A stretch of DNA of 64,000 nucleotides from Candidatus Shapirobacteria bacterium. Lineage in GTDB: Bacteria > Patescibacteriota > Microgenomatia > UBA12405. The stretch covers positions 50,750 to 114,749 of the forward strand of contig JAGOQF010000002.1 of assembly GCA_017991615.1 (NCBI GenBank), written 5' to 3'. A model generated the notes under the pieces. It was not told the origin of the DNA. It saw nothing but the letters and a program-made list of their open reading frames with translations, and did not search any database. Shown here one piece after another: positions 26,526 to 62,667 of this stretch (its first letter is position 1; every line of letters begins with the position of its first letter). The translations under genes and the position numbers were made by a program.

Positions 26526-27221
26526 ATGACCACTGATCCATTAAAAATAGCTATAAAAGGGAGTACTCAAGACCATTTACCGATTGAAGATATTGTTGAC
26601 GGAGTGGTGATAATGAAAGACGGATCATGCGCTTCGATTATGCAGATATCATCGGTAAATTTTGATCTATTGTCGGAAAAAGAACAATCGGCGTTGGTGG
26701 CGGCTTATGGGGGAATTTTAAACTCTTTAAATTTTCCGATTCAGATTGTAGTTAAGTCCAGTACTAAGGATGTGGGAGTTTACTTAAAAAGATTATTAGA
26801 AGCGGAAAAAAAACAGACTAATAAGTTACTTAAGGAAAGAATTAAAAACTATCGAAAATTTATTGATGAAACAGTAAAGAAAAATGATGTCTTATCAAAG
26901 ACTTTTTATATAGTAATTAAATTTTCTTCATTGGAATTGGGAATAAAAACAGCGGGAGTTCAAACTATTACCAATTTGTTTAACAAAAAGGTTACTAGTC
27001 TACCCTACCCTAAGGCAGAAATTTTGGAAAAAGCTAAAGCTAGTCTAGAACCAAAGAGAGATCATTTAGTAAGATTATTTTCTAGGTTGGGGTTAGAAAT
27101 AATCCCGCTGACAAATAGACAATCGATTGAGTTGTTCTATAAAATATATAATGAGGAAGTGGCGACCAATCAAAAAATGGAAACAATTAATTATCAAAAC
27201 CCAATAGTTACAACAAAATAA
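26526..27221 (+). CDS. Hypothetical protein (T4SS locus)
   Basis: 231 aa. Directly upstream of and translationally coupled (2-nt gap) to the VirB4-like gene. Confidence 0.35.
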   Translation: MTTDPLKIAIKGSTQDHLPIEDIVDGVVIMKDGSCASIMQISSVNFDLLSEKEQSALVAAYGGILNSLNFPIQIVVKSSTKDVGVYLKRLLEAEKKQTNKLLKERIKNYRKFIDETVKKNDVLSKTFYIVIKFSSLELGIKTAGVQTITNLFNKKVTSLPYPKAEILEKAKASLEPKRDHLVRLFSRLGLEIIPLTNRQSIELFYKIYNEEVATNQKMETINYQNPIVTTK

Positions 27222-27222
27222 T

Positions 27223-29511: not shown

Positions 29512-29595
29512 TCCTTTGGGTAAAGATTGATATAATTTTGGGTAATAGTGCGATATTAAAAAAAATAAAAAAACAAGGTTAGAGACAAAAGCAAA

Positions 29596-31641: not shown

Positions 31642-31646
31642 ATAAT

Positions 31647-32144
31647 ATGTTTATTAAATTAATAAATTTAATTAAAAAATTTAAAGTAATAATTATTTTA
31701 GTATTAATAATATTTTTATTATTGATAATAAAGATAAATACTAAAGATGTTTATATTGAAAACAACAACTTAGATTTGATTAAAAATTCACTCACTCCAT
31801 CTGGAGTAAATAAAAAAGAAACTATAACTAGTCAGGATAAATTTAAAATAAAAGGATTAAATTTAGACGAGATAATGAATTTAAATTCAGGGGAGTATAG
31901 TAGTTTTATAAAAGGTTTAACAGAAAAAGAATTAGATATGTTGCCAGGAAAATATGATATTTCAGAATATATATCATTTGAAACTAACAATTTTATTATT
32001 AACGATTATGATTTAGACACGAAAGAGCTAAAAATTAAATCAAAAACAAATAATCAGGCATTTGATGAGGAAAATTTCGAATATTGGTATAAAAATTCAG
32101 TAGAAAATAATAGAAATGAAATTAAAGTAATATGGTCAAAATAA
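31647..32144 (+). CDS. Hypothetical membrane-anchored protein
   Basis: 165 aa. N-terminal TM helix. AT-rich. Confidence 0.35.
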   Translation: MFIKLINLIKKFKVIIILVLIIFLLLIIKINTKDVYIENNNLDLIKNSLTPSGVNKKETITSQDKFKIKGLNLDEIMNLNSGEYSSFIKGLTEKELDMLPGKYDISEYISFETNNFIINDYDLDTKELKIKSKTNNQAFDEENFEYWYKNSVENNRNEIKVIWSK

Positions 32145-32246: not shown

Positions 32247-33368
32247 TTAATCCTGGAGACGGACGGGCATAATTATATGAGTGAAAGAAGGGTCGGATTG
32301 GTCGTGAAAAAAGACAGGGGTAAGATTTTCATTAAGTTTGATCAAAATTTCTTGACTTTTACAGACATTAAGAAAGTCGCTTAAGAACTTATAGTTAAAA
32401 GCAACTTCGAGATTTTCACCTTCGGTTTTGGTTTCAATTTCAATTCGATTCTGACCGACTTGAGGAGCATTGGCAGTAAGTTCAACTGAATTATTTTTAA
32501 TATTCATTTTAACAACATTAGCGGATTCACGAGCAAAGACAGAAGCTAGTTTGACTGATTGAAAAAATTCGTCGCGATTGATAAAGACTTTGGTTTGATA
32601 TGATTCAGGAATAAGTTTTTTGTAGTCGGGAAACTCCCCTTCTATAAGTCGAGAAACTAGCTCTATATCGTCTAGAACAAACATTACTTGATGTTCGTCT
32701 TGAGTAAGACCAATCTTTATTTTTTGATTCGTTTTAGCGAGTTTAGTGACTTCAATTAAACTCCGAGCAGGAATTAAAAAAGTAACTGGTTTGTCAGTTT
32801 TTAAATTAAGAGAATTAACTAATTTAATTTCTTTGAAAGAAAGTCTAAAACCGTCGGTAGAAACCAAGGTAAGTAGATTTTGAGAAAAAGAACATAAAAT
32901 ACCGGTTAAAATCGGTCGAGTATCGTCAGTGGCGGCGGAAAAAGCCATTTGAGAAATAGCTTGACTTAAAATATCTAAATCAATTTCAAAAACAGTATCA
33001 GGATTGATTTGAGGAAATTCAGGAAAATCAGTGGCAGGAGAAGTAGTAAAATCGGATTCAATTTTTGCGGAAGAAACTGAGAGAAGATTATTTTCTTTGA
33101 GAGATAAATCAATTTTACCGGTAGGGAGATAAGAGATAAATTCAGTAATTTCTTTTGAAGGGATAGTAATACTCCCCTCTTGATCAATTTTAGCACCAAT
33201 CCAATAATTAATACTTAATTCTAAATTGGTGGCCGATAATTTGAGTCGACCTTGATCAGTGGAGATTAAAATATTTCCTAAAATAGGTAATTGATTTTTA
33301 GAAGAGACAAAACGGGAAACGTTGGTTAAGGCAAGGTTTAAGTTTTCCTGGAGAAGAGAAAGTTTCAT
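32247..33368 (-). CDS. dnaN: DNA polymerase III beta sliding clamp
   Basis: 373 aa. MKLSLLQENLNLAL...ILGNILI N-terminus, three-domain length, and position downstream of dnaA. Confidence 0.8.
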   Translation of the reverse strand: MKLSLLQENLNLALTNVSRFVSSKNQLPILGNILISTDQGRLKLSATNLELSINYWIGAKIDQEGSITIPSKEITEFISYLPTGKIDLSLKENNLLSVSSAKIESDFTTSPATDFPEFPQINPDTVFEIDLDILSQAISQMAFSAATDDTRPILTGILCSFSQNLLTLVSTDGFRLSFKEIKLVNSLNLKTDKPVTFLIPARSLIEVTKLAKTNQKIKIGLTQDEHQVMFVLDDIELVSRLIEGEFPDYKKLIPESYQTKVFINRDEFFQSVKLASVFARESANVVKMNIKNNSVELTANAPQVGQNRIEIETKTEGENLEVAFNYKFLSDFLNVCKSQEILIKLNENLTPVFFHDQSDPSFTHIIMPVRLQD

Positions 33369-33642
33369 TAATCTAATTATATAAAATTAATAATAAAATA
33401 GTAGTTGTAGTTAGTAGTAATGGTTAATAAGTGAATAAATTTAAAATTAAAGGTAATGATAGGTTAAAGATAAATTTAATGGATGTTGAAAGAGATAATT
33501 AGGTGAAAAATTGAGGGTTTTTTTGAAATTTTGGCTTATAAGTTGAATTGAGATTAGGGTTAGTTTCGGTGGGAAAGATAAAAAATAAATGTGGAAAAGT
33601 TGGTGGATAAGTGAGATAATTTTGTGGATAAATAAAATAAGT
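33369..33642. promoter_or_regulatory. oriC segment (dnaA-dnaN intergenic): AT-rich DUE-like tract plus DnaA boxes
   Basis: TGTGGATAA (perfect, 33623-33631), TGGTGGATAA and TGTGGAAAA variants. About 80% AT. Confidence 0.55.
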
Positions 33643-34983
33643 TTAAAAAGATGATTTTATTTGGTTGATAAGTTTAGTAGTTTGTGGATTAGTGGATAAA
33701 TCTTGGTGGATTTTGTCACGAGCATGCATAATACTAGTATGATCACGACCACCTAAAAGTCGACCAACTTCTTCCAAGGAAAGATTAGCTTCAGTGAGGA
33801 GAATATAAGCGGTTAGATGACGAGCATAGACCAAATCTTTTTTTCGACTGCGACCACAGAGGTCACTAGTTTTAATGTTGAAAGTTTTAGCACAAACAGA
33901 AATAAGATGGCGAGGATTAATTTTGGAGCTAGAAAATGGATTTAAAGAGGAATTTTTGTCAGGATTAAGAAAATTTTGAACAAAACTTAAATCAATGGGA
34001 ATAATTTTTTGAGCGCTGGATTGGATTAAAATTTGTTTAAGCTTACCTTCGATTTCGCGGATATTTGATTCGATATTAGTAGCTAGAAAAGAAATAGCTT
34101 CAGGAGTAATTTGAATTTGAAATTCTTCAGTTTTTTGTTTGATAACAGCGACTCTCATTTCATAATCAGGAAGTTGGATATCAACTGTTAGTCCGCCCAT
34201 AAATCGAGAAACTAGCCGATCTTCAAGGTGGTCAATTTCACTAGGTTTACGATCAGAGGTGAGAATAATTTGTTTACCTTTCATATGAAGGGCATTGAAG
34301 GTGTGAAAAAATTCTTCTTGGGTATATTCTTTGCCAGCTAAAAATTGAACATCATCGACTAGAATACAGTCTAGATTACGATATTTATCTTTAAACTGAT
34401 TCATAGTTTTGGACTTAAGAGAAGCTACAAGTTCGTTACTGAAGGTTTCGGCGGGAAAATATTTAATTTTAAATTGAGGATTGTTTTTGAGAAGTTCATG
34501 ACCGACAGCTTGCATAAGATGGGTTTTACCAACTCCTACCCCACCCCAGATAAAAAGTGGGTTATAAGAGAGACCGGGATTTTTGATAATACCCTGGGCG
34601 GCGGCATAGGCAAAATTGTTACTATTGCCAACAATGAGGGTGTCAAAGGTGAATTTAGGGTGAAGATTATGTTGAAAGGAAGTATTTTTTGGAGTGTATT
34701 CAAATAAAGGAGAGTTAATAGGTGAAGGATTAATTAAAGGTTCTTGAACAATAAATTCAAGAGTATTTTGAGTTTTGGTTTGGTTATCTAGGGCATCTTT
34801 AAAAATTTGGTAGTAGCGTTTTTTGTTGATATCGACCAAATAGGAATTGGGACAGGCTAAAACAGCTTTATTATTTTGGAGGCTGATGAGTTCAGTTTTA
34901 CTAACAAAAGTTTGGAAAACCGCTGGCGCCAAGACAATTTTTAATTCTTCTTGTGTGTTTTTCCAAAGGCGGTTAATATCCAT
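33643..34983 (-). CDS. dnaA: Chromosomal replication initiator DnaA
   Basis: 446 aa. AAA+ Walker A GGVGVGKTHL, Walker B LDCILVDDVQF, and C-terminal DNA-binding helix-turn-helix. Confidence 0.9.
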   Translation of the reverse strand: MDINRLWKNTQEELKIVLAPAVFQTFVSKTELISLQNNKAVLACPNSYLVDINKKRYYQIFKDALDNQTKTQNTLEFIVQEPLINPSPINSPLFEYTPKNTSFQHNLHPKFTFDTLIVGNSNNFAYAAAQGIIKNPGLSYNPLFIWGGVGVGKTHLMQAVGHELLKNNPQFKIKYFPAETFSNELVASLKSKTMNQFKDKYRNLDCILVDDVQFLAGKEYTQEEFFHTFNALHMKGKQIILTSDRKPSEIDHLEDRLVSRFMGGLTVDIQLPDYEMRVAVIKQKTEEFQIQITPEAISFLATNIESNIREIEGKLKQILIQSSAQKIIPIDLSFVQNFLNPDKNSSLNPFSSSKINPRHLISVCAKTFNIKTSDLCGRSRKKDLVYARHLTAYILLTEANLSLEEVGRLLGGRDHTSIMHARDKIHQDLSTNPQTTKLINQIKSSF

Positions 34984-50545: not shown

Positions 50546-52603
50546 ATGACAGAACGACCATCAGCAATTGAATTTATCAAACAGGCTAGTCAAGAGGCTA
50601 GACAGAAGGAAAATAATCAGAGAGTGGGTAGGATTGCTGAATTGTTGGTGAATAATGCGGGAGTGTTGGGAAGAACAATTGAGAAAGAAAAATCAGATCA
50701 GGTATGTGAAGCGGTGTTGGGAGTGTTTGGGGCAGGGTATAAATCAGTAGAGGAGATGAGCAATACTTTGAAAAATCCGAGCGCAACCGACAGGCAGAAG
50801 GAAATGGCAAAAGAGAATTTGGAAGTTTTAGGAAAGGGGATTTTTGTAGCAATGAACAGAACTTTTGCCAACTTTTCGGAAGAAGCCACAGAGACGATTA
50901 CGTCTCAGATGACTGGAGAACAGATAGATGAGTTTGTATTACCGGATCAGTTAAAAGGGGCAGGAAAGTATGTGGTGGAGGCTGATGGAAAGGCGACAGA
51001 TGAGGAAAAAAAGAAAGCTAAAGAGCTGGTTAGAAGTGGAGGAGGTAGGCGGAGAGATGGTTACTCACCACCATTTGTAGGTAGCGAGGATGATCAAAAC
51101 AAAGAAGTAAGGTCGTGGCAAATATCGCCTGAATATGCGGCTGAGGCAATGAAAAACATGGATCAAATGTATTGGCAATCTTATACACCTCCAGAGTGGA
51201 TGAAAGGTTTAGATTCGGAAACTCAGGCGAGAATTGAATGCATGATTGATATAAATATGGGGGCTGTTATTTTGGGTAAAGCTGGTAAGGATTTGGAAAG
51301 GATAAAGTTTAATGATATGTATTTTAAGTTTAATAATGAGAGATTGACGAAGTTATTTAATCCTAATTTTAAGCTGGCTTTGAGTAAAATGTTGAATGAT
51401 TTATGTGAGCTTTATAAGGATCGGAATGGACATATGTGTCTTAGATATAAGGAGGGAAAAGATAAAGATGGGAAGCCGGGGATATCGGAAGAAGTGTTAA
51501 GTAAGTTAAGAAATATTGCGAAATATAAGGAAGATTTGGCTAAATTTTTGGCTGAACAGGATAAAGGGAAGAAAGAACCACCTTATATTTATAGGATGAA
51601 TGCTTATACGGCTTGGAATTTGTTTTATATGTTTGGAGACTCAAGTGTGGCTGATAGAAGAAGGTCGTTGCCAACTTATGGGGGGATAATAAGCGATGCT
51701 CTAAGAACTCTTAATCCAGAATATAAGGCTTTGGGGAAATGGAAAGTTTCGAAAAATGATGTTCCAGAATCTAGCTTGGAAGCGGCGGAGTGGTTTGGAG
51801 GACCATTAGGGACTTACGTGCAGACGGTAATGCAGTTGGAGAGAAGTTTGGGAAGGCCATTGGATGGAACCAAGACGTTGAGAGAAAAGATTATAAGTGG
51901 TGATTTGCCAATATTGAAAGCCAAGACTTTTTATGGTTTCTTTGACTTTGTGGCTGGTGATAAGAATTTGTTTGATAAGAATGGGGTTAATTTCATTAAT
52001 AAAGGAAGAAAAGAAACTTTGGCTTCTTTGTTGATGTATTATGCTTTTGATAAGGATGGAAATTTTATATCAGATGAGAATAAACGGGAGGATTTTAGTT
52101 TTGGTCATAACCAGGTTGATTTTTTGAATTTATATAGAGATCAGATGGAAGCGGCGGTTTTGACATTTAAGGCGATGACGGGTAAATTGGATACTAAAGA
52201 TATCGGCGGTTATGTGTCGGATATAAGAACTGCTTTTGGGATGGTTGATGGGATTAGTGTAAATGGAGATCATCTTTATAAATACACAAAGGATTGGGGA
52301 ACGTGGGGAAGTATGTTGTTGGGGTCTTTTGGGGTGGATATGCAGAAGTTATCAACCGATTTTATTTATTTAAGAGTGACGCGACCTGAAGCTTATAGTA
52401 TTAATGTTGGTGATTTTTTATATAAGGATTTGGGGTTGATGGGAAGTGATGTTGATTTGACAAAATTGATGAGATTTTTAGGAGTTGATATTAGAGATGG
52501 GGAAAGGTATGATGGTTTGGGGGTATCTACGAGAACTGGAAAGAAGCGAATAGAGATAGAGAGAAGGACAAATATTCTTTATAGAAGAATTAGGCAAAAA
52601 TAG
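50546..52603 (+). CDS. Large hypothetical protein (divergent partner of the PNP-domain gene)
   Basis: 685-aa ORF with no recognisable motif. Confidence 0.35.
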   Translation: MTERPSAIEFIKQASQEARQKENNQRVGRIAELLVNNAGVLGRTIEKEKSDQVCEAVLGVFGAGYKSVEEMSNTLKNPSATDRQKEMAKENLEVLGKGIFVAMNRTFANFSEEATETITSQMTGEQIDEFVLPDQLKGAGKYVVEADGKATDEEKKKAKELVRSGGGRRRDGYSPPFVGSEDDQNKEVRSWQISPEYAAEAMKNMDQMYWQSYTPPEWMKGLDSETQARIECMIDINMGAVILGKAGKDLERIKFNDMYFKFNNERLTKLFNPNFKLALSKMLNDLCELYKDRNGHMCLRYKEGKDKDGKPGISEEVLSKLRNIAKYKEDLAKFLAEQDKGKKEPPYIYRMNAYTAWNLFYMFGDSSVADRRRSLPTYGGIISDALRTLNPEYKALGKWKVSKNDVPESSLEAAEWFGGPLGTYVQTVMQLERSLGRPLDGTKTLREKIISGDLPILKAKTFYGFFDFVAGDKNLFDKNGVNFINKGRKETLASLLMYYAFDKDGNFISDENKREDFSFGHNQVDFLNLYRDQMEAAVLTFKAMTGKLDTKDIGGYVSDIRTAFGMVDGISVNGDHLYKYTKDWGTWGSMLLGSFGVDMQKLSTDFIYLRVTRPEAYSINVGDFLYKDLGLMGSDVDLTKLMRFLGVDIRDGERYDGLGVSTRTGKKRIEIERRTNILYRRIRQK

Positions 52604-52611: not shown

Positions 52612-54372
52612 TTATGGTGGTGATGGTCCGCCTCCGCGTTCTCTATCTGTTCTATCACCTGCATGTTTGCCTCCGAGCATTCTGTTGGTGATACTAATTG
52701 CTCTTCTATATAGATTACTACCACTACCGCCTCCAACCTTTTGGTTGGCATAATCAATACCAGCTCTGATACCGGATGAAGCAGTGCTTTTGGTAAATTT
52801 ACCAAGACCGGCATAACTTTCACCGATAGCAGAGCCGAAGGCGTCGGGTTTGAGTTTAAAGATGGCTTCAGGGACAAGTTTGGGAAGGTTGGAAATCATG
52901 GCTAGTCCGGCGAGACCAATGCCGGCGGCAACAACACCCATAGGGTAACCAGCGATATCACCGGTAATGGTGATGAGATCAATCTGGCTGGGAATCCAAA
53001 GAGTTCCACCGCGGACAATTTCGGTAAGATAATTGAGAGCGACAATAAACAGACTAACTATAGGAAAGACAGAGATATTGGCAATAAGATCAATAATCCA
53101 AGAGGAAAAGCCTTGTTTGGCGGTTGGGAAAGCGCCGAGACCGATTTGGATAGGGCTGATAATGATTTTGAAAATAACAACAATATAACTTTTGAGAAGA
53201 CCAAAATAGAGTCTAATCATCCAGATAACCATAAGAACAGCCATGATGAGAGGAAATGAAAGCCAGCCGGCAATTCCGCCGACAACATCGCCAACTACAG
53301 CGCCAACTGTACCAACAACTCGACTGCCCAGTTGACCCAAAGCCGCTCCACCAATACCACCAAGAATGGTCCCGAGGAAGATTTGACCGGCAACTTCTCC
53401 AAGCATGAAGCCATAAATTGCAGGAATGGCTTGATTACTTAGTTCATAAATGGTGCCGAAGCTCATTCGGGATAGATTCTCCAGATTAGTGGGATGATGA
53501 TTAAAAAGACCAGCAATAGCTTCAATTCCTGCCCAGATTAGATCACCAATCCAAGTAAGCGGATTATTATTACTAATATCTATTGTGGTGGGAAATAAAT
53601 TACTGTTAAAATCGGCGTTACCCCTAGCGTTAAAGAAGACGGAGATACCGAGGGAAAGGACTAGTTTACTTAAATCGATGATTAGTCCGGCGATAGCGTA
53701 AGAAAAAGTAACTAAAATTAGAGTGGTAATGACTTTGGGGATGGTATTTTGAATGTTAACAACAGTTTGGGGATTAACTTTGACTCGAAGCATAATCATA
53801 ATACCAATAGTGACGAAAAATATAGAAATTAAAGCATAAACAAAATTGCGAATAGTACGCCAGAGAGGGAGGATGGGTTGAAGTCCTTGGAAACCGGTAT
53901 TTTGAGCGTAAGCAGGTTTACCAAGAAATTCGTTTTTGACTTGAGCTAGATATTCAACACCAGAAACCGGTTGGTAGTAAAGGCTGCTGATCATATTATT
54001 GGTAGTGCCAATAACTCCACCAGGGATGTAACCAGTGAAATTTATAGAACCGTCTTCTTGAAAAGGGATACCTCCGGTAAGCGAACCAAGAATACTAACT
54101 ATATTACTGGCAAGTGAAGAATCAAGCCAAGCTTCTTGGTTGTTACCTTTTTTGATGGCATCTTGTTTTTGTTTGATTAAATTTTGAGGGGTGTTAGTTT
54201 GATTTTGGTTGGTGGGGGTGTTGGTAATTTCGCTGGCGGTGATGGTTTTGATGGAAAGAAAGAGACTAAAACCAGAGATGATTATTAGGAAAGCGGTGAA
54301 AAAGAATTTTTTGGAAGGGATGAGGCGGGTGGAGCGGAGGTTGAGATGATGGAGTAGTTGTTTGAAGGTCAT
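52612..54372 (-). CDS. Polytopic membrane protein, VirB6/TrbL-like candidate of T4SS-like locus
   Basis: 586 aa. Signal/TM, Q/N/T-rich spacer, at least 8 TM helices with Gly-rich loops, and a Gly/Arg C-tail. Operon context with pilin-like genes. Confidence 0.4.
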   Translation of the reverse strand: MTFKQLLHHLNLRSTRLIPSKKFFFTAFLIIISGFSLFLSIKTITASEITNTPTNQNQTNTPQNLIKQKQDAIKKGNNQEAWLDSSLASNIVSILGSLTGGIPFQEDGSINFTGYIPGGVIGTTNNMISSLYYQPVSGVEYLAQVKNEFLGKPAYAQNTGFQGLQPILPLWRTIRNFVYALISIFFVTIGIMIMLRVKVNPQTVVNIQNTIPKVITTLILVTFSYAIAGLIIDLSKLVLSLGISVFFNARGNADFNSNLFPTTIDISNNNPLTWIGDLIWAGIEAIAGLFNHHPTNLENLSRMSFGTIYELSNQAIPAIYGFMLGEVAGQIFLGTILGGIGGAALGQLGSRVVGTVGAVVGDVVGGIAGWLSFPLIMAVLMVIWMIRLYFGLLKSYIVVIFKIIISPIQIGLGAFPTAKQGFSSWIIDLIANISVFPIVSLFIVALNYLTEIVRGGTLWIPSQIDLITITGDIAGYPMGVVAAGIGLAGLAMISNLPKLVPEAIFKLKPDAFGSAIGESYAGLGKFTKSTASSGIRAGIDYANQKVGGGSGSNLYRRAISITNRMLGGKHAGDRTDRERGGGPSPP

Positions 54373-54413
54373 AAGTTAGATTAATTTTAGCAAAATTAAT
54401 TATAAAAACATAA

Positions 54414-54869
54414 TTATTTATAGTTGACAGTAATTCGGTCGAGTTGGTCGACACCGTTTTGAGCAAGCCAAGCTTGAGCTTCTTGTTTGGCAAGATCGGT
54501 TTGGTCTTCGTGGTAAACAATAATCTCGAGGTTATTGGCGCCGATATAACGTTGGGCACGAAAATATTTGCCTTGATAAGGGAGAAATTTGGCCAGAGGA
54601 ATTTGATAATTGACTTCGGTAATTTGATCGGAGGGGGAAGATTGAGGGTTGGTTGGGGAGGAGTTGTTGGAAGTGTTGGGTTGAGAATTATTTGGTTGAG
54701 AAATGGGATTTTGGTTGGTTTGTTGAGGAGCTAATTGACCGGGTTGGGTGGTGTCAAAATTGTCAGGTGAAGTGGTGGAAGAATGAGAAGAGGAGAGTTT
54801 GATGATGGTAAGAGCAATGACAATAACAGTTAAAATAATGAGATATTTATTTTTAGCAAGAGTTTTCAT
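54414..54869 (-). CDS. Secreted low-complexity (Q/N/S/P/T-rich) protein
   Basis: 151 aa. N-terminal TM/signal, then a QNPISQPNNSQPNTSNNSSPTNPQSSPSDQ tract. Confidence 0.4.
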   Translation of the reverse strand: MKTLAKNKYLIILTVIVIALTIIKLSSSHSSTTSPDNFDTTQPGQLAPQQTNQNPISQPNNSQPNTSNNSSPTNPQSSPSDQITEVNYQIPLAKFLPYQGKYFRAQRYIGANNLEIIVYHEDQTDLAKQEAQAWLAQNGVDQLDRITVNYK

Positions 54870-54872
54870 ATT

Positions 54873-57107
54873 TTAAGGATTGTAATCCCAGTGTTCGGGT
54901 TCAAGTTGATGATTGTAAAAACCATACTGGTGAGCATTGGCAGTGAGCCATTTGTAAGCGGAGGAACTGGAAGTGAGTTTGCCGTTTTTGTCGGCAAAAT
55001 CGATGGCGCGGCCGGTGTGGTGGGGCGAAGTGCCAGGATAATTGATTTGACTGATAGTTTGATATTGGTCGCCGTTGTTTTGGGCGAGGTTTTCTTGCCA
55101 AAGGTCGGTTTGTTGGTTTAGACTTCGGTAGCAACTAAAAAAGGAGAGTTGGTTGTCGGGATTGTCGGTATTGAAGGCGGAAATCATTTGGTTAAGGCTG
55201 GAAAAGATGCGTTCGTCGAGTTGACAATTACCCTGGTAGGTTTTGAGATATTTCCCGCCGTCAATTTGGGCGAGATCGTAAACTTGATTAATTCGACCAG
55301 GTGAAGAGTTATTGGAGAATGAAATTAAACCTTGAGAATTGGTATTGGTAGAAATATTGGTAATACTGGGAAGGGTATAACCGATACCTTCGAAGCAAAT
55401 ACCATTGATGGCCCCTCCATTAGCGTCGAAGGCGTAGGAAATTTTTTCGTATTTAAGGCCATCAAATTTAGGATTGTAAGAACCAGGACCGCAAAAAGCA
55501 CTGCGAGCGGTAGTGTGGAGACGTTGGCGGCTGTTTTGGTCGACGACATATTCACCACGAGTAAGTTCGACGGCGGCGCCTTGATTGGTAATAACCTCTT
55601 TGCCATTGATAATTTTAGGTTGGTTGAGAGAGACTTGATCACAACGAAAAGCTTGGTCTTTGTTGTTATTCCAAAGGAAACCTTTATCTCCGTTTTGGAT
55701 AGCGGTATGGCGATGGGTGAGGGTAAGAGCTTTTTGAGCTTCGATATGCCAATTGCGGGGAACTTCGGCAACACCTAGAAGGTAGGTATAGAGATCTGGA
55801 ACAGTGACAACAGGATAACAAATACCTTCGAGGCGATAGGGCGGGGATGAGGGATTGTCTGGGTCAGTGACGGGGATTTTGACATATTTATCACAGGGGG
55901 TTTTACCGTCTTCGTTGACACCGCCACTGCCTTGGTAAAGATCAACTTTATCGTAGTTTTGGTCACCAACAAGATTGGGGCAAGTAATATCGCTGTCACC
56001 ACCGTAGTCTTCGATAATAACGACTTTTATGGGTCCTTTGTCATCGTCACCTTGTCGTTCGGTGTCGATACCACCACCGTGATAAATATTGATAATTTCC
56101 TTGTAATTGTAGCCGCTGAGAGCTAAACCATGGGTACCACGTTGACTAAGACCAGGTCCATTTTTGACAGTGTATTCTTCATCACATTGAATTTGGTCGG
56201 TGTTGATAAGATTGCCTAGAGCGCCACATTTAGAGTTATTCCAGCCATTGGGAGTAAGGTGACAGGCGAAACTTTGACGAAGATTTTCACGATTAAAATC
56301 AGCATTGTTGTTACAGGCAATTTGGTCGTGAACTGGTTCGGAAAGTAGACCTAAAAGCATATTTTGTTCTTGTTTGTCACTATCTTCGGCAACTTTTTTG
56401 GCTTGTTGAGGATTGTCATTGCTGGGAGGGGCATTTTCACCTTGGAAATTGCGAGGCATAACATTTCTAATAGTGTCATTGAGTTGGAGACTGGTAATAG
56501 GGGCGGCATCGGCTTCGTTCATGAAGAGACCTTGAGGGACGTCTTGAATATTGTTGTAAGCGTTGAGATAACAGGAAAGAGGATGTTTGATTTCGAAACG
56601 AAATTGATTCATAAGATTGGGGTCATATTCAAGCGGTTGGTCGGGATTACCTTGCTGATAGAGAATTTTTTGGTTTTGTTGGTACATGACATAGGCAATA
56701 TCAGAGATTTTCATGTCGGGACAGATATCTTGATCACTTTTGATGGTTTCATTTTTGTATTTGTGAGGTTTAGTCAGTACCTCATAAAACCAAACGCCTT
56801 TGCGGTATCTTTTGACTGATTCAGGAATGGCGCGGGAGGCAATATCTTTGTCGTCTCGAGTATAGTCGTTGGTGAGATGACGAGTATCCTTGGTGGAAGC
56901 TTGGTAATCCTCGGAAACATATTGAATACCAAAGATGAGGTAGTTAAAAAATCTGGTGATAGCTTCCCAGATAGTTTGAAAAAATCCGGGAGATGATTGT
57001 TCTTGGGGGGGGTTGCCGGATGGAGGATCTGATTGAGCAGTGACAGTTGTGGGGGTGAGCCAAAACAAGGAGAAAAAACTGATAATGAGAACAATTTTTT
57101 TGATCAT
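54873..57107 (-). CDS. Secreted Cys-rich peptidoglycan-remodelling protein: SpoIID/LytB-like region + C-terminal peptidase M15 (VanY-like)
   Basis: 744 aa with a signal peptide. GLSQRGTHGLALSGYNYKEIINIYHGG resembles the SpoIID GMSQxGA motif. The C-terminal SPHHTGRAIDF resembles the M15 SxHxxGxAxD motif. Confidence 0.5.
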   Translation of the reverse strand: MIKKIVLIISFFSLFWLTPTTVTAQSDPPSGNPPQEQSSPGFFQTIWEAITRFFNYLIFGIQYVSEDYQASTKDTRHLTNDYTRDDKDIASRAIPESVKRYRKGVWFYEVLTKPHKYKNETIKSDQDICPDMKISDIAYVMYQQNQKILYQQGNPDQPLEYDPNLMNQFRFEIKHPLSCYLNAYNNIQDVPQGLFMNEADAAPITSLQLNDTIRNVMPRNFQGENAPPSNDNPQQAKKVAEDSDKQEQNMLLGLLSEPVHDQIACNNNADFNRENLRQSFACHLTPNGWNNSKCGALGNLINTDQIQCDEEYTVKNGPGLSQRGTHGLALSGYNYKEIINIYHGGGIDTERQGDDDKGPIKVVIIEDYGGDSDITCPNLVGDQNYDKVDLYQGSGGVNEDGKTPCDKYVKIPVTDPDNPSSPPYRLEGICYPVVTVPDLYTYLLGVAEVPRNWHIEAQKALTLTHRHTAIQNGDKGFLWNNNKDQAFRCDQVSLNQPKIINGKEVITNQGAAVELTRGEYVVDQNSRQRLHTTARSAFCGPGSYNPKFDGLKYEKISYAFDANGGAINGICFEGIGYTLPSITNISTNTNSQGLISFSNNSSPGRINQVYDLAQIDGGKYLKTYQGNCQLDERIFSSLNQMISAFNTDNPDNQLSFFSCYRSLNQQTDLWQENLAQNNGDQYQTISQINYPGTSPHHTGRAIDFADKNGKLTSSSSAYKWLTANAHQYGFYNHQLEPEHWDYNP

Positions 57108-57464
57108 TTAATTAGAGTCGATTTTGAATATGGTGACATCGATACCGGTAAATTCTTTGATGAAAAGAAGGATTAACCAGGAAACAATGATGCCAATAAT
57201 ACCAATGACAGCGTAGGTGAGGGTGGTGGAAGCGGCAGCAACTTTTTTGGGGTCGCCGCCAGAGGTGAGATATTTGAAACCGCCGACGATGAGCATGGCT
57301 AAGGAGACGAAGCCGGCAAGGCTGACAATGACAGTAATGATGTTTTGAAAAAGACATTCAAGGCCTTTGATGGTGGCGACACCGTCGGAAACACAATTGC
57401 CAGACCAGGCTTTAGTTTGGGCTAGTGCGGGGTGAGGTAAAAAAAATTTGATGATTGAATTCAT
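57108..57464 (-). CDS. VirB2/TrbC-like mini-pilin paralogue 1
   Basis: 118 aa. Signal-like N-terminus, two hydrophobic helices separated by a conserved GGFKYLTSGGDPKKV loop. Paralogous to the five downstream genes. Confidence 0.5.
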   Translation of the reverse strand: MNSIIKFFLPHPALAQTKAWSGNCVSDGVATIKGLECLFQNIITVIVSLAGFVSLAMLIVGGFKYLTSGGDPKKVAAASTTLTYAVIGIIGIIVSWLILLFIKEFTGIDVTIFKIDSN

Positions 57465-57487
57465 AAATTAATTATACAATAGACCAA

Positions 57488-57516
57488 CAAAAAACCCGCC
57501 GGAGAGGCGGGTTTTA
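57488..57516 (-). terminator. Rho-independent terminator (bidirectional hairpin) after pilin paralogue 2
   Basis: aaaacccgcc-ggagag-ggcggg-tttt. GC stem with flanking A-run and T-run. Confidence 0.6.
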
Positions 57517-57530
57517 AAAGATAACTAATT

Positions 57531-57911
57531 TTATTTGAAAGTGGGAATAGTTAGACCCTTGAGAATGTCAATACCAAAGATGGTACCGATAAGTTTCATA
57601 ATGGCCCAAGCGGCAAAGACGATAGCCAAACCAATGAGAGCGTTGGTAATTTGAGCGCGGGCTTCGCCGACCTTTTTTTCATCACCGCCAGAAGTAACCC
57701 ATTTAAGACCGCCCCAAACTAAAATGAAGAAGAAAACTAAAGCGACTACAATTAGAACCAAACTGACAGCACCAGAAACAATACCGCCAACAGTAAGGTC
57801 ACTAAGAGGTTTAAAATCTTGAGTTTTTGACTCTATTTTAAGAGTCTCTTGGGCGTAAATAGGGGCAGCAATAGCTGCGTATTGGATTTGTTGTTTGAGT
57901 TTGTTGAGCAT
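57531..57911 (-). CDS. VirB2/TrbC-like mini-pilin paralogue 2 (candidate major pilin)
   Basis: 126 aa. LVWGGLKWVTSGGDEKKVGEA...ALIGLAIVFAAWAI. Followed by a strong terminator. Confidence 0.5.
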   Translation of the reverse strand: MLNKLKQQIQYAAIAAPIYAQETLKIESKTQDFKPLSDLTVGGIVSGAVSLVLIVVALVFFFILVWGGLKWVTSGGDEKKVGEARAQITNALIGLAIVFAAWAIMKLIGTIFGIDILKGLTIPTFK

Positions 57912-57961
57912 ATTTTAATTATAATAATTAATTAATTAATAATAACAGTTTTCTAAAAATA

Positions 57962-58315
57962 TTAAAGAGAAGGCCAAACTAATTGAAGATTTTGGAGATT
58001 AGGAATACCAAAGACAACACCAACAAATTTAAGAATGGCGAAAATGGCAAAGACTAGAATTAGACCGATAAAAGCATAAAGAATTGAACTTTGAGCTTGC
58101 TTCCATTTGTCGGGATTGCCTTGAGAAGCAATCATATGATAAGCATACATAATAAAGTGCCAGATGAAGTAGAGAACAGCGACGATGAAAAAAATAGAAA
58201 TAATGCTTTGAATAGCATTATTGACATAATTAGAGGGATTAGAAACAATGCTGTTAGAGTCGGGGAGAACAGGATTATTAATTTGAGCAAAAATAGGTGG
58301 GATAATTTTAATCAT
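57962..58315 (-). CDS. VirB2/TrbC-like mini-pilin paralogue 3
   Basis: 117 aa. MIASQGNPDKWKQA...AFIGLILVFAIFAI. Confidence 0.45.
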   Translation of the reverse strand: MIKIIPPIFAQINNPVLPDSNSIVSNPSNYVNNAIQSIISIFFIVAVLYFIWHFIMYAYHMIASQGNPDKWKQAQSSILYAFIGLILVFAIFAILKFVGVVFGIPNLQNLQLVWPSL

Positions 58316-58316
58316 A

Positions 58317-58676
58317 TTAAGGTTGATTTTTAGGCATAATATTTTGGATACTAAGCGGATCTTTGATACCTAGAAGACTGGCAATGAAAGCGCCAACACC
58401 AAGAGCGACAACGATAATGGTCAGGCCAAGAATACCGTTGGTAAGACGACTACGGGCGGCTTCAATTTTATCTTTGTTTCCTTGGGCGGAAATAAATGAA
58501 TAACCAGCAAAAATAACCTGAATAATGAAGTAAATAACAGCAACGATAGTCAGAATTCCAATGATTTGACTGAGAAAACCTTCAAGAGGTTTGGCAGGAT
58601 TACTTAAATCTGGTTTGAGACCAGGACCTTCAAGTTTGTAAGTAGTATCAGCAATCAAGGGTTTAGTTAGGACCAT
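58317..58676 (-). CDS. VirB2/TrbC-like mini-pilin paralogue 4 (start revised to internal Met)
   Basis: The listed ORF 58317..58751 overlaps the upstream paralogue by 89 nt. Starting at Met26 (MVLTKPL...) gives a 14-nt overlap and a paralogue-like length. SAQGNKDKIEAA loop motif. Confidence 0.4.
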   Translation of the reverse strand: MVLTKPLIADTTYKLEGPGLKPDLSNPAKPLEGFLSQIIGILTIVAVIYFIIQVIFAGYSFISAQGNKDKIEAARSRLTNGILGLTIIVVALGVGAFIASLLGIKDPLSIQNIMPKNQP

Positions 58677-58983
58677 AAATGATGGGTTCAATAATGTTAA
58701 TGTTAAGAATTGAGCCAACGACACTGGTAAGAATGAAAGCTCCGGCAACAATAATTAGACCGATAAGACTTTGGGTGATTTTATTCAAGGCGGCTTCAGT
58801 TTTTTTGGGATCACCACTACTGGAAAGATAGCCGTAACCAGCTATAATTAATTGGGCCACAAAGAAAAGACCGGCAATAACACCGGCCAGTTTGAAAATA
58901 TTGGATAAGAGAAGAAATAATCCAGAACCGCCTTGACTGTTGTAATTGGTTGGATTGGAGATGCTACCAAAGATTGCGAGCAT
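58663..58983 (-). CDS. VirB2/TrbC-like mini-pilin paralogue 5
   Basis: 106 aa. IIAGYGYLSSSGDPKKTEAA...LIGLIIVAGAFIL. Confidence 0.45.
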   Translation of the reverse strand: MLAIFGSISNPTNYNSQGGSGLFLLLSNIFKLAGVIAGLFFVAQLIIAGYGYLSSSGDPKKTEAALNKITQSLIGLIIVAGAFILTSVVGSILNINIIEPIIYGPN

Positions 58984-58989
58984 AAGTTA

Positions 58990-59334
58990 TTATAAACCAG
59001 AATCAAGAATTTTGACGCCAGTAACCAAACTAATAATTTGAATGATAAAATAAGCAGAAAAAACGACGGCAAAACCGATAAGAGCACTACTGATGGCCTG
59101 TTGAGCTTGGGCGGTTTTTTTAGAATCAGCGGAACCGGCGTTGATAATCATGCTGATGCCACCAAAAATAAGCAAACAAAGAAAAATAATTCCGGCTAAG
59201 GTAAGAGAGTTTTTGAGAAGAGAGTTGATTAGGGGGCTAGCGGTGTTATATTTAGGACCGACGGCGGTGCCACTGTTGTCAAGAAGATTGTTGCCGATAT
59301 TGACTTGAGCTAAAAGAGATGATGTCATTGGCAA
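58990..59334 (-). CDS. VirB2/TrbC-like mini-pilin paralogue 6
   Basis: 114 aa. IFGGISMIINAGSADSKKTAQA...ALIGFAVVFSAYFI. Confidence 0.45.
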   Translation of the reverse strand: MPMTSSLLAQVNIGNNLLDNSGTAVGPKYNTASPLINSLLKNSLTLAGIIFLCLLIFGGISMIINAGSADSKKTAQAQQAISSALIGFAVVFSAYFIIQIISLVTGVKILDSGL

Positions 59335-59469
59335 AATTATACCCTAAAGAAGAAAAAAAATGAATTGATGACAATAAGGGTTGATTTGGTTAAACTAGTG
59401 CTATAATACGGCACTTTAATAAACTTTTGTGAAGTTTAAGTTTATAAGGTTTTAAAGTAGAATTAAAAT

Positions 59470-60396
59470 ATGAAAAAAATAACTGCCCTATTATATATAG
59501 TATTAAGCATAAGTTTTTTAGGTTTGGTAATGAAGGTTGAGGCAAGGAAATCGGAAAGGTTGATAACATCAACAGAGGTGATGGTAAAAAGTTTGAGTTT
59601 GAGTCCGATGCCGACAGGAATGGTAGCAACTGAGACAGCTGAAGTGATTGAAGTGGTGCCAACTTTGGCGTCGGTAGTAAACATTAAAGAAGAACCAAAA
59701 GCAAATGAGTTGGATTATAAGTCGGAAAAATGGAATGGTTTAAACACTTTGAAGGTGGCGATTGGTTGGGCGGTGACTAGGGGGATTTCGACTAACACAT
59801 TGGTACTATTGTTGTTATTACCGTTGGTGGCAACATTGGTGTCATTCTTGCATTATGTAGTAGGGTTATCAGGATATGGGATTTTTATGCCGACAATGGT
59901 GGCAGTAACATTTTTGGCGACGGGAATTCCGGGGGGATTGGTGTTGTTTGGGGTAATTTTACTATTATCATTAGCGAGCAAATCAGTTTTAAGAAGGTTG
60001 AAACTTCATTTTTGGCCGGCGAGATCGATAGGGTTGATAATAATTTCGATAGGGACATTTGTGTTTATGGTGTGGTCGTCGTTTCTAAGTGATATTGATA
60101 TAAGTCAGGTGTCAATTTTCCCGATTACGTTTATGATTTTGTTGGCAGAGGAGTTTACTCGAACTCAACTGATAAAGAGTAAAAAAGAAGCCAAAAAACT
60201 AATGATGGGGACAATTATTTTGGCATTGGCGGGAGCAGTAATGATGGATTCGGCTTGGATTCAGAACTTGGTTTTGAGATACCCCGATTTAATATTGGTT
60301 TTGATATTAGTGGCAAACTTGGCGATAGGAAATTATAGCGGAATTAGATGGTCGGAAATAGCTCGGTTTAAGAAAGGGATTAGGGAAAGGAAGTAG
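59470..60396 (+). CDS. Polytopic (about 7TM) membrane protein with N-terminal extracytoplasmic segment
   Basis: 308 aa. Signal peptide, about 100-aa soluble segment, then 6-7 TM helices. First gene of the ATP-grasp/peptidase module. Confidence 0.45.
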   Translation: MKKITALLYIVLSISFLGLVMKVEARKSERLITSTEVMVKSLSLSPMPTGMVATETAEVIEVVPTLASVVNIKEEPKANELDYKSEKWNGLNTLKVAIGWAVTRGISTNTLVLLLLLPLVATLVSFLHYVVGLSGYGIFMPTMVAVTFLATGIPGGLVLFGVILLLSLASKSVLRRLKLHFWPARSIGLIIISIGTFVFMVWSSFLSDIDISQVSIFPITFMILLAEEFTRTQLIKSKKEAKKLMMGTIILALAGAVMMDSAWIQNLVLRYPDLILVLILVANLAIGNYSGIRWSEIARFKKGIRERK

Positions 60397-60418
60397 TTGA
60401 TAATTTTTTAAAAACTTT

Positions 60419-61777
60419 ATGTTTAGTTTAAAAAAATATCATCGATTTTTGACAAAGAACGAAAGGAATAAGGTATATTTGCGTAAAAATACGGCTGTTG
60501 GCAAGGCAATTGCCGATAGCAAATATAGAACTAAAAAAAAGTTGATGGCGGCGGGAGTATCGGTACCGACATTGATAGCTAGATTTAAGAATCAAGATGA
60601 TTTAAATAATTTTAGGTGGGAAAAACTGGAGGGTAATTTTGTGATTAAACCGGAATCAGGATATGGTGGTGAGGGGATTTTGATTATTAGAAAAAGAGGT
60701 AAGTGGGCGGGGGAATGGTTGAGAATGAATGGTGAAATGTTGACAACGGCTGATTTGCAAAGGCATTGTCAGGATATATTGGTAGGAAAATACAGTTTAC
60801 ACAATATACCAGATACAGTGTTGGTGGAAGAGCGGATAAAAATTCATCCATTGTTTTTGGCGTTAACTAAGTCGGGAACCCCGGATATTAGAGTGATTGT
60901 TTATAACCGAGTGCCAGTAATGGCCATGTTTCGGATTCCGACGGAAAAGTCTGGGGGTAAGGCTAATCTCCACCAAGGGGCGATGGGATTGGGAGTGGAT
61001 TTGGCGACAGGAATAACCACTTTTGGAATTGAGGGCGGGGGAGTGCCAGTGACTCGGATTTATGATTTTAATAAAAAGAAAAAAAGAAAAGTTAATGGGA
61101 TAAAGATTCCATTTTGGCGGGAGATTTTAGAAACGGCAGTAAAATGTCAGATAGCCTTGCCAGAGTTGGGATATATGGGGGTAGATGTGGTATTGGACAA
61201 AGAGAAAGGTCCGGAAGTGTTGGAGGTAAATGCCAGACCAGGATTATCGATTCAACTGTGTAATCGGGCAGGGTTGAGAGCGAGATTGGAAAAGGTGGAT
61301 GAGATAGAAGTAAGGAGTGTGGATCATGCGATAACTTTGGCAAAATATTTGTTTGGAGAGAGATTCTTTGAGAAAGTGGATGAGAAAGAAAAAAATCGTT
61401 TGATTGAAGCGGTGGAAAATATCAAGATAAAGATTCCCAAGGGATTTAAGCCAGAGTTTGATAAAAGCAAGATTTTGAAGAAAGGGAAACATCGGATGAT
61501 TGAAGTAAAAGCTAAGGTGGATACCGGAGCATTGAGAAGTTCGATAGATCGAAAATTGGCTGAACAGTTGGGGTTGTTGACTGAGGAAAGAATTTTGTAT
61601 TATCGTCATTATCGGTCGGCGTTGGGCAAGGCGCATGAAAGACCGGTGGTTTGGTTGACTTTTTGGCTTAAGGGTAAAAAGATTTCAACAGCGGCAAATG
61701 TGGCCAATCGGGAAGGGTTAAGTTCTCAGTTTTTGATTGGAAGAAGGGATTTAACTGGATTTTTAATTAAAAATTAA
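60419..61777 (+). CDS. ATP-grasp (RimK/alpha-L-glutamate-ligase-like) fused to C-terminal retropepsin-like aspartic peptidase (DUF785 family)
   Basis: 452 aa. ATP-grasp motifs (FVIKPESGYGGEGI; NLHQGAMGLGVDLATG; LEVNARPGL). C-terminal AKVDTGALRSSID contains the D-T-G-A aspartic protease signature. Confidence 0.6.
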   Translation: MFSLKKYHRFLTKNERNKVYLRKNTAVGKAIADSKYRTKKKLMAAGVSVPTLIARFKNQDDLNNFRWEKLEGNFVIKPESGYGGEGILIIRKRGKWAGEWLRMNGEMLTTADLQRHCQDILVGKYSLHNIPDTVLVEERIKIHPLFLALTKSGTPDIRVIVYNRVPVMAMFRIPTEKSGGKANLHQGAMGLGVDLATGITTFGIEGGGVPVTRIYDFNKKKKRKVNGIKIPFWREILETAVKCQIALPELGYMGVDVVLDKEKGPEVLEVNARPGLSIQLCNRAGLRARLEKVDEIEVRSVDHAITLAKYLFGERFFEKVDEKEKNRLIEAVENIKIKIPKGFKPEFDKSKILKKGKHRMIEVKAKVDTGALRSSIDRKLAEQLGLLTEERILYYRHYRSALGKAHERPVVWLTFWLKGKKISTAANVANREGLSSQFLIGRRDLTGFLIKN

Positions 61778-61785
61778 TAAATAAG

Positions 61786-62667
61786 ATGAATAAAATTGCA
61801 GTTTTTGGAGGCAATGTAAATGGAAGTAAATTTTTGGAACTTAAAGCGGCGGCAGAAAAATTGAGGGTGGAATTGGATTTGATTTCGTTTAAAGAATTGA
61901 CGTTTGAAACCGAAACTGGAAGGGTATTTTTTAGAAACCATGAAATTGGAGGTTACGATGTTTATTTTTTTAGAAATAATAAAACTTATTGGGAAGAAAC
62001 CAGCTTAATTTTGGATCAGTTGGATGAGAGTAAAATAATTTTGGATCCGGTTATTAAAAGATGTCGACAGAGTGATGTTTGTAAAGCACATCAAATGGTA
62101 GTTTTGAGCCAAGCGGGATTGCCGGTGCCAAAAACTGTTTATGGGAGTTTGAAATTTTTAAAAAAGGAAGATTTGAGTAAATTTGAATTTCCGTTGATTA
62201 TTAAAGGAAGTCGGGGAGACAGGAGAAGGCAAGTATTTAAAGTATATGGTCAAAAGGATTTAACAGAGAGAATCAGGGAAATAAAAGAGATAGAAAAGAG
62301 AGGTGAAAATAAATATATGTTGCAGGAATATATTGTGAATACCAGGGATTATCGAGTGATGGTGGTGGGAGGAGAGGTATTGGGAGTGATGGTGAGAGCG
62401 ATTGGTGATAACCCTAGGTTGAAGAATGTGTTTGAGAAAAGTGATTTGCCGGAGGAGGTAAAGAAAATGGCGGTGGAGGCGGCCAGAGTGTGTGGGATAA
62501 CGGTGGCGGGGGTGGATGTGGTGTTTAGGGATGATGAAATAACCAAACCGCTTTTGTTTGAGGTGAATAAGACCCCGAACTACACTAGATTTGAGGAAGT
62601 AATGGGAATAAGTGTGGCAGAAGTGGTGGTAAAATTTTTGGCAAAGGTTAGAAATGAGGGTGTTTAA
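61786..62667 (+). CDS. RimK-like ATP-grasp ligase (alpha-L-glutamate ligase family)
   Basis: 293 aa. PLIIKGSRGDRRRQV, DYRVMVVGGEV, GVDVVF...FEVNKTP are typical RimK/ATP-grasp motifs. Confidence 0.6.
   Translation: MNKIAVFGGNVNGSKFLELKAAAEKLRVELDLISFKELTFETETGRVFFRNHEIGGYDVYFFRNNKTYWEETSLILDQLDESKIILDPVIKRCRQSDVCKAHQMVVLSQAGLPVPKTVYGSLKFLKKEDLSKFEFPLIIKGSRGDRRRQVFKVYGQKDLTERIREIKEIEKRGENKYMLQEYIVNTRDYRVMVVGGEVLGVMVRAIGDNPRLKNVFEKSDLPEEVKKMAVEAARVCGITVAGVDVVFRDDEITKPLLFEVNKTPNYTRFEEVMGISVAEVVVKFLAKVRNEGV

Follow-up and report, generated by a model that had tools for sequence, protein, structure and literature searches.

A probable pilus/translocon locus with six ordered VirB2-like pilins in a Shapirobacteria-like Microgenomate

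Type IV secretion systems (T4SSs) that include an array of VirB2-like pilin genes are known from Patescibacteria and have been described by Wang (2023), by Quinonero-Coronel et al. (2025) and in a 2025 FEMS review. The survey by Quinonero-Coronel et al. (PMC12102498) searched 3,035 Patescibacteria genomes with the Pfam families PF04956 and PF18895 and recorded 441 arrays of 2-11 pilin genes with a mean identity of 25%, especially in Microgenomatia and Saccharimonadia; such arrays were present in 383 assemblies. These clusters lie close to dnaA and have TrsD and PrgI neighbours, VirB6 is scarcely detectable in Microgenomatia, VirB1 is rare, and relaxases are missing from most of the clusters. 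Southlakia epibionticum, which has no relaxase, cannot grow as an epibiont without its T4SS and pilin series (PMC10633639). The FEMS review (PMC12857230) describes six divergent VirB2-like pilins in the same organism and presents VirB6 and VirB5 as a proposed platform for VirB2 nucleation. It also states that Gram-positive-type T4SSs are normally without pili. Here we describe a locus with six such pilin genes in a stretch of 64,000 nucleotides (the window) of contig JAGOQF010000002.1, assembly GCA_017991615.1, from a Candidatus Shapirobacteria bacterium.

We consider it likely that this region is the pilus/translocon half of a chromosomal, non-conjugative T4SS of the kind typical of Patescibacteria, carried by a Shapirobacteria-like Microgenomate and used in epibiotic host interaction. 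A preliminary description made from the DNA letters had already suggested a pilin array linked to epibiosis rather than to conjugation, which was right in substance and describes a system that is already known. It had also called the array unusual, a view that does not agree with its publication for 383 assemblies or with its essential role in S. epibionticum. The locus therefore adds no new kind of system, and its comparative details are modest, testable additions. As far as the literature was searched, the fixed order of the six pilins, the internal terminator and the layout in two transcription units have so far gone unreported.

The six-pilin array

The ORF (open reading frame) list of the window contains nine tightly packed genes that are all read in the minus direction, between 59334 and 52612, with intergenic spacing of -14 to 66 nucleotides. 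Six small genes come first and are followed by the genes for proteins of 744, 151 and 586 residues. The preliminary description counted seven co-directional genes at 57108-59334. A co-directional minus-strand string is present there, but it consists of six genes; the ORFs at 57112-57357 and 58848-59087, the source of the extra small gene, are overlaps of real genes in other frames.

All six small proteins match PF18895 (T4SS_pilin), five of them above the curated Pfam cut-off of 26.6 bits. On the minus strand these are pilin 1 (58990-59334, 30.9 bits), pilin 2 (58663-58983, 106 residues, 42.8 bits), pilin 4 (57962-58315, 117 residues, 33.6 bits), pilin 5 (57531-57911, 126 residues, 39.1 bits) and pilin 6 (57108-57464, 118 residues, 38.4 bits). 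Pilin 3 (58317-58751) scores 23.1 bits and is below the cut-off, and its orthologues elsewhere also match PF18895. Additionally, pilins 2 and 3 have weak matches to the TrbC/VirB2 family PF04956 (20.9 bits, E 4e-4 for pilin 3) and pilin 5 has a weak NCBIfam match to the Mbov_0395 pilin-like conjugal transfer family. By their profile matches, the six small proteins thus belong to the curated T4SS pilin family PF18895. The T4SS pilin identity proposed in the preliminary description is supported by these matches, and Pfam gives no holin or immunity family for any of the small proteins.

An alignment of the six pilins shows two hydrophobic helices that flank a short basic loop, GD[PE]KK, with pairwise identities of 23-30% and only a G, a K, an A and a G invariant. 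The longer motif first reported for the loop, GG[FL]K[YW][LV]TSGGD[PE]KK, describes pilins 5 and 6 but not the other four. Most of the pilin leaders end in A-Q (..YAQ, ..LAQ, ..FAQ), and the leaders of Agrobacterium VirB2 and R388 TrwL, when the sequences are compared, read ..AAAQ. VirB2 is cleaved at this ..AAAQ site of its leader.

Two of the gene starts are likely to lie downstream of the listed ones. Each of the six proteins has the two hydrophobic helices and a short Lys-rich loop, but the earlier range of 106-144 residues should read roughly 105-125. The 144-residue ORF of pilin 3 runs from TTG 58751 and overlaps the preceding gene by 89 nucleotides. The true start is likely ATG 58676, giving 119 residues, because an 86%-identical relative (L005) annotates the orthologue in this way, with 118 residues and a 14-nucleotide overlap. 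For pilin 1, the ORF begins at TTG 59334 and the true start is probably ATG 59328, giving 112 residues. In another related locus (L004, ~8100-8534) the sixth pilin was missed in the recorded gene calls, which list a 66-residue ORF of the other strand in its place; counts of pilins based on annotation can therefore be underestimates.

The array was compared across related genomes after a scan of one genome per species, which found 227 relatives and led to 80 fetched loci. Position-specific hidden Markov models (HMMs), POS1 to POS6, were used to assign 431 pilin ORFs from 85 loci to their types (median margin 98 bits), and the window pilins fall into the corresponding families (pilin 1 into POS1, which has 67 ORFs in the related loci, pilin 2 into POS2, pilin 3 into POS3, pilin 4 into POS4 and pilin 6 into POS6). 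In all 63 loci with complete upstream sequence (63/63), the pilin types occur in the order 1-2-3-4-5-6; loci with partial patterns are those in which the upstream sequence is insufficient. The exceptions to the hexad are extra type-5 copies in three loci (L019, L072 and L080, with two or three in tandem) and a locus that reads 1-2-3-5-5-6 (L085). Copy number varies in pilin type 5 only. The order of pilin array, then the gene for a secreted protein (the slot gene), then the membrane protein gene is constant in every related locus that is sufficiently long.

Each pilin type is a separate lineage. Among five genomes, identity is 47-62% between pilins that share a position versus 25% between positions, and in 120 of 120 reciprocal comparisons the best match is to the same position. 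Orthologues of every single type occur in more than 70 other species, and each type bears its own strongly conserved motifs. Pilin 6 has two conserved Cys residues in its exposed N-terminal part, where the POS6 consensus is AQ...W.g.Cv...dvATIQGfECLF. Compared with the window sequences, the pilin orthologues are 47-64% identical and the membrane protein 40% identical; pilin 5 is the most conserved type, with a median orthologue identity of 63.5%. These results revise three statements of the preliminary description. The pilins are not clear recent paralogues, given the pairwise identity of 23-30% and an orthologue for each type in more than 70 species; they did not arise by tandem amplification in the sense proposed, being ancient, single-copy and position-specific; and they are not antigenically variable, as their conservation is above that of the adjacent membrane protein. 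The hypervariable gene of the locus is the Cys-rich slot gene that follows pilin 6. As the pilins are neither recent duplicates nor hypervariable, the comparison argues for six non-redundant roles and against an antigenic-variation cassette. As both the most conserved type and the only one that is ever duplicated, pilin 5 is the leading candidate for the role of major subunit.

The sequences around the array contain putative transcription signals at two places. A strong hairpin followed by a T-run, which resembles an intrinsic terminator, lies on the minus strand at 57484-57515, 16 nucleotides past the pilin 5 stop codon; the hairpin is AAAACCCGCC-TCTCC-GGCGGGTTTT, with the T-run after it. Of 68 non-redundant loci, 64 have an equivalent hairpin with T-run (dG <= -8, dG being the folding free energy) behind pilin 5, and no two of these 64 sequences are alike. 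At the other junctions an equivalent hairpin is found in 0-10 of ~65 loci. A TATAAT box at 57471-57476, 6 nucleotides upstream of the pilin 6 ATG, is the putative promoter of a second unit; it is exact in 54 of 69 related loci and has at most one mismatch in 61 of 69. The putative promoter of the first unit is a TATAAT box at 59336-59341, 7 nucleotides upstream of the pilin 1 ATG, and an exact box 4-9 nucleotides upstream of this ATG is found in 29 of 55 related loci. Before pilins 3 and 4 the box occurs in 0-1 of 66 loci. Because the hairpin after pilin 5 and the TATAAT before pilin 6 are conserved, we infer two transcription units, one with pilins 1-5 and the other with pilin 6, the slot gene, the 151-residue protein gene where present and the membrane protein gene. 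A monocistronic pilin 5 was also considered on account of a TATAAT box before this gene in the window, and was dropped as the box is kept in only 4 of 74 loci.

No Shine-Dalgarno (SD) sequence precedes pilin 1, and SD motifs are essentially absent. The mRNAs that would begin at pilin 1 and pilin 6 may be leaderless. Among the other window genes, an SD sequence is found in 1 of 51, and a TATAAT-like box 4-9 nucleotides before the ATG is exact in 6 of 51 and within one mismatch in 22 of 51. This pattern suggests widespread leaderless or non-SD translation initiation in the organism.

Proteins encoded with the array and the VirB4 module

The gene after the pilins in the second unit (54873-57107, minus strand) encodes the 744-residue Cys-rich slot protein. 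As first described, it is a large secreted protein with many Cys residues and a VanY/M15 region: it has a signal peptide, and its C-terminal 115 residues are a VanY/LdcB-type M15B domain (residues 629-744, roughly 54876-55223) that scores 66.3 bits against the Pfam family VanY PF02557, for which the cut-off is 25. LdcB/DacB chains in the PDB align at E 1e-5 with the motif SPHHTGRAID, and EPEHW lies at the very C-terminus; both are zinc-site motifs. A Foldseek search of the model found VanY-B (5hnm) with an E value of 4.6e-5 and a probability of 1.00. The M15B domain is genuine, as the profile match, the LAS fold and the zinc-binding motifs (H..D, and E..H in the C-terminal part) all agree. The SpoIID-like motifs proposed for the same protein are not supported, since the matches are below threshold (PF08486, 18.2 versus 23; TIGR02669, 29 versus 83.3 over just 29 residues), and no SpoIID structure appears among the Foldseek matches of the 744-residue model, which is of low confidence in that part. 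The N-terminal two thirds matched neither a VirB5-like fold nor any other, and the model is poor there (overall predicted local distance difference test score, pLDDT, 58.8).

The slot protein evolves quickly. A homologue is detectable in 19 of 71 loci, at 26% identity, and ten Cys residues are invariant among 14 homologues of the 744-residue protein. In other genomes the slot gene encodes a Cys-rich secreted protein of 265-440 residues with faint similarity to the N-terminal part. The VanY extension is present in only ~9 related loci, so that by this distribution the peptidase is a lineage-specific addition to a fast-evolving exoprotein and not a core part of the T4SS. The variable Cys-rich protein itself is likely a host-facing or cell-wall-remodelling component. 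The secreted Q/N/P-rich protein mentioned in the preliminary description is also present: the gene after the Cys-rich one encodes a 151-residue protein (54414-54869, minus strand) that has a membrane anchor at its N-terminus and a linker rich in Q, N, P and S. It has no family match in Pfam or NCBIfam, and its gene is found in only 8 loci, which belong to the same subclade as the VanY extension.

The last gene of the string (52612-54372, minus strand) encodes the 586-residue polytopic membrane protein. Its AlphaFold2 model has a mean pLDDT of 63, with 75-91 in the helical core, and contains many long hydrophobic helices, with very long ones at residues 201-250 and 318-412. The best structural matches are TrwI and DotA, which are solved VirB6-class proteins and may be similar to it in fold. 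The gene follows the pilin array in all of the related loci. Among 118 family members, TrbL is the commonest weak family match, found in 6 at sub-threshold scores (best E 8e-4). A profile of the family found nothing among PDB sequences, and the family has no match in 72,556 plasmids. At least 476 homologues are known, without a Pfam domain; where named, they come from Ca. Shapirobacteria or Woesebacteria. The protein is a candidate for the VirB6 role because the VirB4 module holds no other polytopic protein. The preliminary proposal of a VirB6/TrbL analogue is thus upheld as to the polytopic topology and may hold as to a fold closest to the VirB6 class, but is not upheld as to a TrbL profile match in the window protein. 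We regard it as a probable, highly divergent VirB6 analogue and not as a demonstrated member of the family.

The partner ATPase module lies on the plus strand at 25565-32144 and adjoins dnaN and dnaA, which follow directly at 32247-34983. It encodes a PrgI/VirB3-like protein (25565-26509; PrgI 23.9 bits, below the cut-off of 27), a TrsD-like protein (26526-27221; E 6e-9) and a VirB4 ATPase (27223-29511; CD1110-type, NCBIfam NF045971 385 bits versus 325, with a Pfam TraG P-loop). A VirB4 partner is therefore present within the window. These genes are followed by those for a 681-residue protein with a C-terminal NlpC/P60 motif (29596-31641; signature LDCSGFVDWAY) and a 165-residue bitopic protein (31647-32144). 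The 681-residue protein, which also has an N-terminal coiled-coil and a Gly-rich membrane segment and for which Pfam gives nothing at E <= 0.001, is probably the VirB1-like wall hydrolase of the ATPase module. No relaxase or coupling-protein (T4CP) domain was found in the scanned window ORFs, which include all those of 300 residues or more. The features set out for chromosomal T4SSs of Patescibacteria (PMC12102498) are accordingly found together here, namely a monoderm-type VirB4, TrsD-like and PrgI/VirB3-like neighbours, proximity to dnaA and a pilin array, with no relaxase found in the scanned ORFs.

The surroundings of the array are conserved as well. In four individually examined loci, the neighbourhood consists of a divergent 7TM_transglut/ATP-grasp operon, six pilins, the variable gene and the membrane protein gene, and continues with a convergent gene for a protein of ~690-870 residues and then DUF6909, ClpB-like, FtsH and DUF4012 genes. 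The gene order that includes the housekeeping genes (FtsH, ClpB-like, dnaA and dnaN) is shared by ~80 species-level genomes. The locus is chromosomal and vertically inherited, not plasmid-borne. In the window, the convergent neighbour is a 685-residue soluble protein (50546-52603, plus strand) whose stop codon lies 8 nucleotides from that of the VirB6-like gene. The equivalent place in L001, L002, L004 and L005 holds the ~690-870-residue protein. The 685-residue protein has no match in Pfam, NCBIfam or the PDB and its 65 homologues are all annotated as hypothetical; it is a conserved neighbour of the pilin locus. On the other side, divergent from pilin 1, a plus-strand operon at 59470-62667 encodes 7TM_transglut, ATPgrasp_ST and RimK-type ATP-grasp proteins, the ATPgrasp_ST product having a C-terminal RimB-like/aspartyl-protease region. 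Of 71 related loci, 61 have a detectable 7TM_transglut gene, and the operon may be a surface peptide-ligase system.

Further observations concern the window and the related records as a whole. A scan of the window with Rfam found tRNAs only. The stretch at 2000-6000 has a GC content of 24-29% versus ~36% overall, has tRNA genes at its borders and contains radical SAM/SPASM (3566-4714) and phosphodiesterase/PglZ-like (5067-6230) genes; it may be acquired DNA. The GC skew of the window is extreme and independent of gene strand, at +0.34 overall and up to 0.59 in 2-kb windows, and keeps its sign across dnaA/dnaN. At third codon positions, C makes up 4% in the genes of the plus strand and G makes up 5% in those of the minus strand. 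The related loci (L001-L085) are skewed likewise in the equivalent orientation, with a median of 0.31. Many of the public metagenome-assembled genome (MAG) records among L007-L085 are labelled 'uncultured Gammaproteobacteria', 'Candidatus Methanoperedens', 'Clostridia' or 'Lactobacillales', labels which on Microgenomatia-type loci look like wrong taxonomy.

A possible mechanism and its alternatives

In the mechanism that we propose, each pilin would be inserted in the membrane as a helical hairpin with the Lys-rich GD(P/E)KK loop in the cytoplasm, and the short leader ending in ..A-Q would be removed. VirB4, which is encoded 25 kb away together with the VirB3-like, TrsD-like and NlpC/P60 partners, would extract the pilins from the membrane, and these would assemble on the VirB6-like platform, as in the R388 model, into a polymer that is either a heteromeric pilus or a conduit spanning the wall. 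The first unit (pilins 1-5) would supply the bulk subunits, which would outnumber pilin 6, the slot protein and the platform. The second unit (pilin 6, the Cys-rich protein and the VirB6-like protein) would supply a base/tip module, in which the Cys-rich protein and pilin 6 may join in a complex at the tip or base, there to contact the host or to remodel the cell wall. The apparatus would serve epibiotic interaction with a host cell and not plasmid transfer.

Several observations weigh against this interpretation. No pilus has ever been seen for such systems, and the filament, its heteromeric make-up and the roles of the individual pilins are predictions. The pilin module lies 25 kb from virB4, across dnaA/dnaN, and a common function is indicated by co-occurrence only. 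The 586-residue protein of the window has no TrbL (PF04610) match in Pfam even at E <= 1, and hhalign gave no signal between the membrane-protein family profile and R388 TrwI. For the pilins, hhalign of the 431 sequences against a profile of TrwL and VirB2 gave a probability of 0.1, the target being thin with only two sequences; the single positional families gave no signal against the same two-sequence profile of TrwL and pTi VirB2. Because hhalign gave nothing, the pilins are assigned by the curated Pfam family, together with their topology and their genomic context. The VanY domain is found in a minority of loci and hence cannot be part of the core machine. Lastly, the promoter and terminator assignments are read from sequence patterns alone.

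A more specific version of the proposal is that the six pilins are obligate, non-interchangeable subunits of the first heteropolymeric VirB2-type structure, with the second unit as its base/tip module and the slot protein setting the host range. We hold this version only tentatively and think it is rather less probable than not. In such a heteropolymer the slot protein would be the functional analogue of VirB5, the VirB6 protein would be highly divergent and pilin 6 would be the Cys-bearing pilin. If it is true, the host range of the epibiont would be set by the slot protein and not by the pilins.

The best of the competing explanations is that the small proteins are not filament subunits but hairpin proteins resident in the membrane, which would build with the 586-residue protein a fixed ring of hetero-oligomeric type or a short channel across the wall, or else an unrelated system of small membrane proteins, for instance holin-like or immunity proteins. 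A fixed set of six distinct subunits does resemble an obligate hetero-oligomer, Gram-positive-type T4SSs are normally pilus-free (PMC12857230), and the hhalign comparison saw no direct similarity to TrwL/VirB2. However, PF18895 is above its cut-off for five of the six proteins while holin and immunity families are not matched, the A-Q leader end is shared with VirB2 and TrwL, and a terminator behind pilin 5 points to unequal dosage, as would be expected of a polymer rather than of a 1:1 ring. We judge this explanation to be unlikely.

A second explanation, modelled on the VirB2 paralogues of Bartonella and Anaplasma, holds that the six pilins are interchangeable and diversify the surface of a single homopolymeric pilus, either as antigenic variation or so as to bind different host strains. 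This idea was raised both in the preliminary description and in the 2025 survey (PMC12102498), and the low identity within the array (23-30%) agrees with it. Against it stands what the related loci contain, namely six separate orthologous lineages in the same order in all 63 complete loci, without loss, shuffling or expansion beyond the extra type-5 copies in three loci. The pilin orthologues (47-64% identical) are also better conserved than the adjacent membrane protein and carry type-specific motifs, and the sole hypervariable gene encodes the slot protein, which is not a pilin. We therefore give it little credence.

Least probable of all is a classical conjugative mating-pair-formation (MPF) system of an integrated mobile element whose pilins build a mating pilus: the VirB4 is of the CD1110 conjugative family and has TrsD-like and PrgI-like partners, but the locus sits amid housekeeping genes (FtsH, ClpB-like, dnaA, dnaN) in the same order in ~80 species-level genomes, the scanned window ORFs contain neither relaxase nor coupling protein, the 72,556 plasmids gave no match, and the literature reports relaxases as missing from most such clusters.

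The non-conjugative, epibiosis-linked T4SS thus remains the interpretation that we prefer. A T4SS with a pilin series is among the few machines shown to be essential for Patescibacteria epibiosis. For such a system, the fixed and ordered set of six pilins argues for a composite structure over variation, and the layout in two units predicts unequal dosage of the subunits. The 586-residue family provides a concrete candidate for the VirB6 protein that profile searches miss in Microgenomatia, and a candidate for what determines host specificity is the Cys-rich protein with its fast evolution.

Comparison with known systems

The closest described systems are the Patescibacteria T4SSs, as represented by S. 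epibionticum ML1 (SEML1_0006-0019) and by the clusters of the 2025 survey. Like these, the window has a monoderm MPF-FATA-like VirB4 with TrsD-like and PrgI/VirB3-like partners next to dnaA, a PF18895 array with ~25% mutual identity that consists of six pilins as in S. epibionticum, a peptidoglycan hydrolase downstream of virB4, and no relaxase found. It differs in that the pilin array is separate, 25 kb from virB4 and on the opposite strand, in that the VirB6 candidate goes undetected by VirB6/TrbL or PrgH-type profiles, and in that the slot protein bears a VanY/M15B domain.

The second comparison is with the VirB2/VirB5/VirB6 stalk of R388 (TrwL/TrwJ/TrwI) and with DotA-IcmX of Legionella. 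The small two-helix pilins, the A-Q leader end and the long-helix polytopic protein that is encoded beside the pilin genes are points of likeness, as is the gene for a secreted protein between them, where a VirB5-type tip protein might sit; TrwI and DotA are the best structural matches of the polytopic protein and may resemble it in fold. In contrast to the stalk, six pilin types are found here instead of one, no TrbL/VirB6 match is above threshold, the secreted protein has no VirB5-like fold match, neither an outer-membrane core (VirB7/9/10) nor VirB11 is present, and the organism is a monoderm.

The GspG-H-I-J-K set of type II secretion and type IV pili offers an analogy of logic only. It is likewise a conserved, ordered set of distinct small pilin paralogues, with a single abundant member and others that are believed to prime assembly or to cap the fibre. 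The protein families are unrelated, however, the ATPase is different, and the pilins described here lack both a class III signal peptide and a motif for prepilin peptidase.

Finally, the VirB2 arrays of Bartonella and Anaplasma are similar in having tandem virB2-like genes that belong to a T4SS for host interaction. Those arrays are lineage-specific expansions tied to variation, whereas the six pilins of this locus are ancient orthologues that are kept in a fixed order and copy number.

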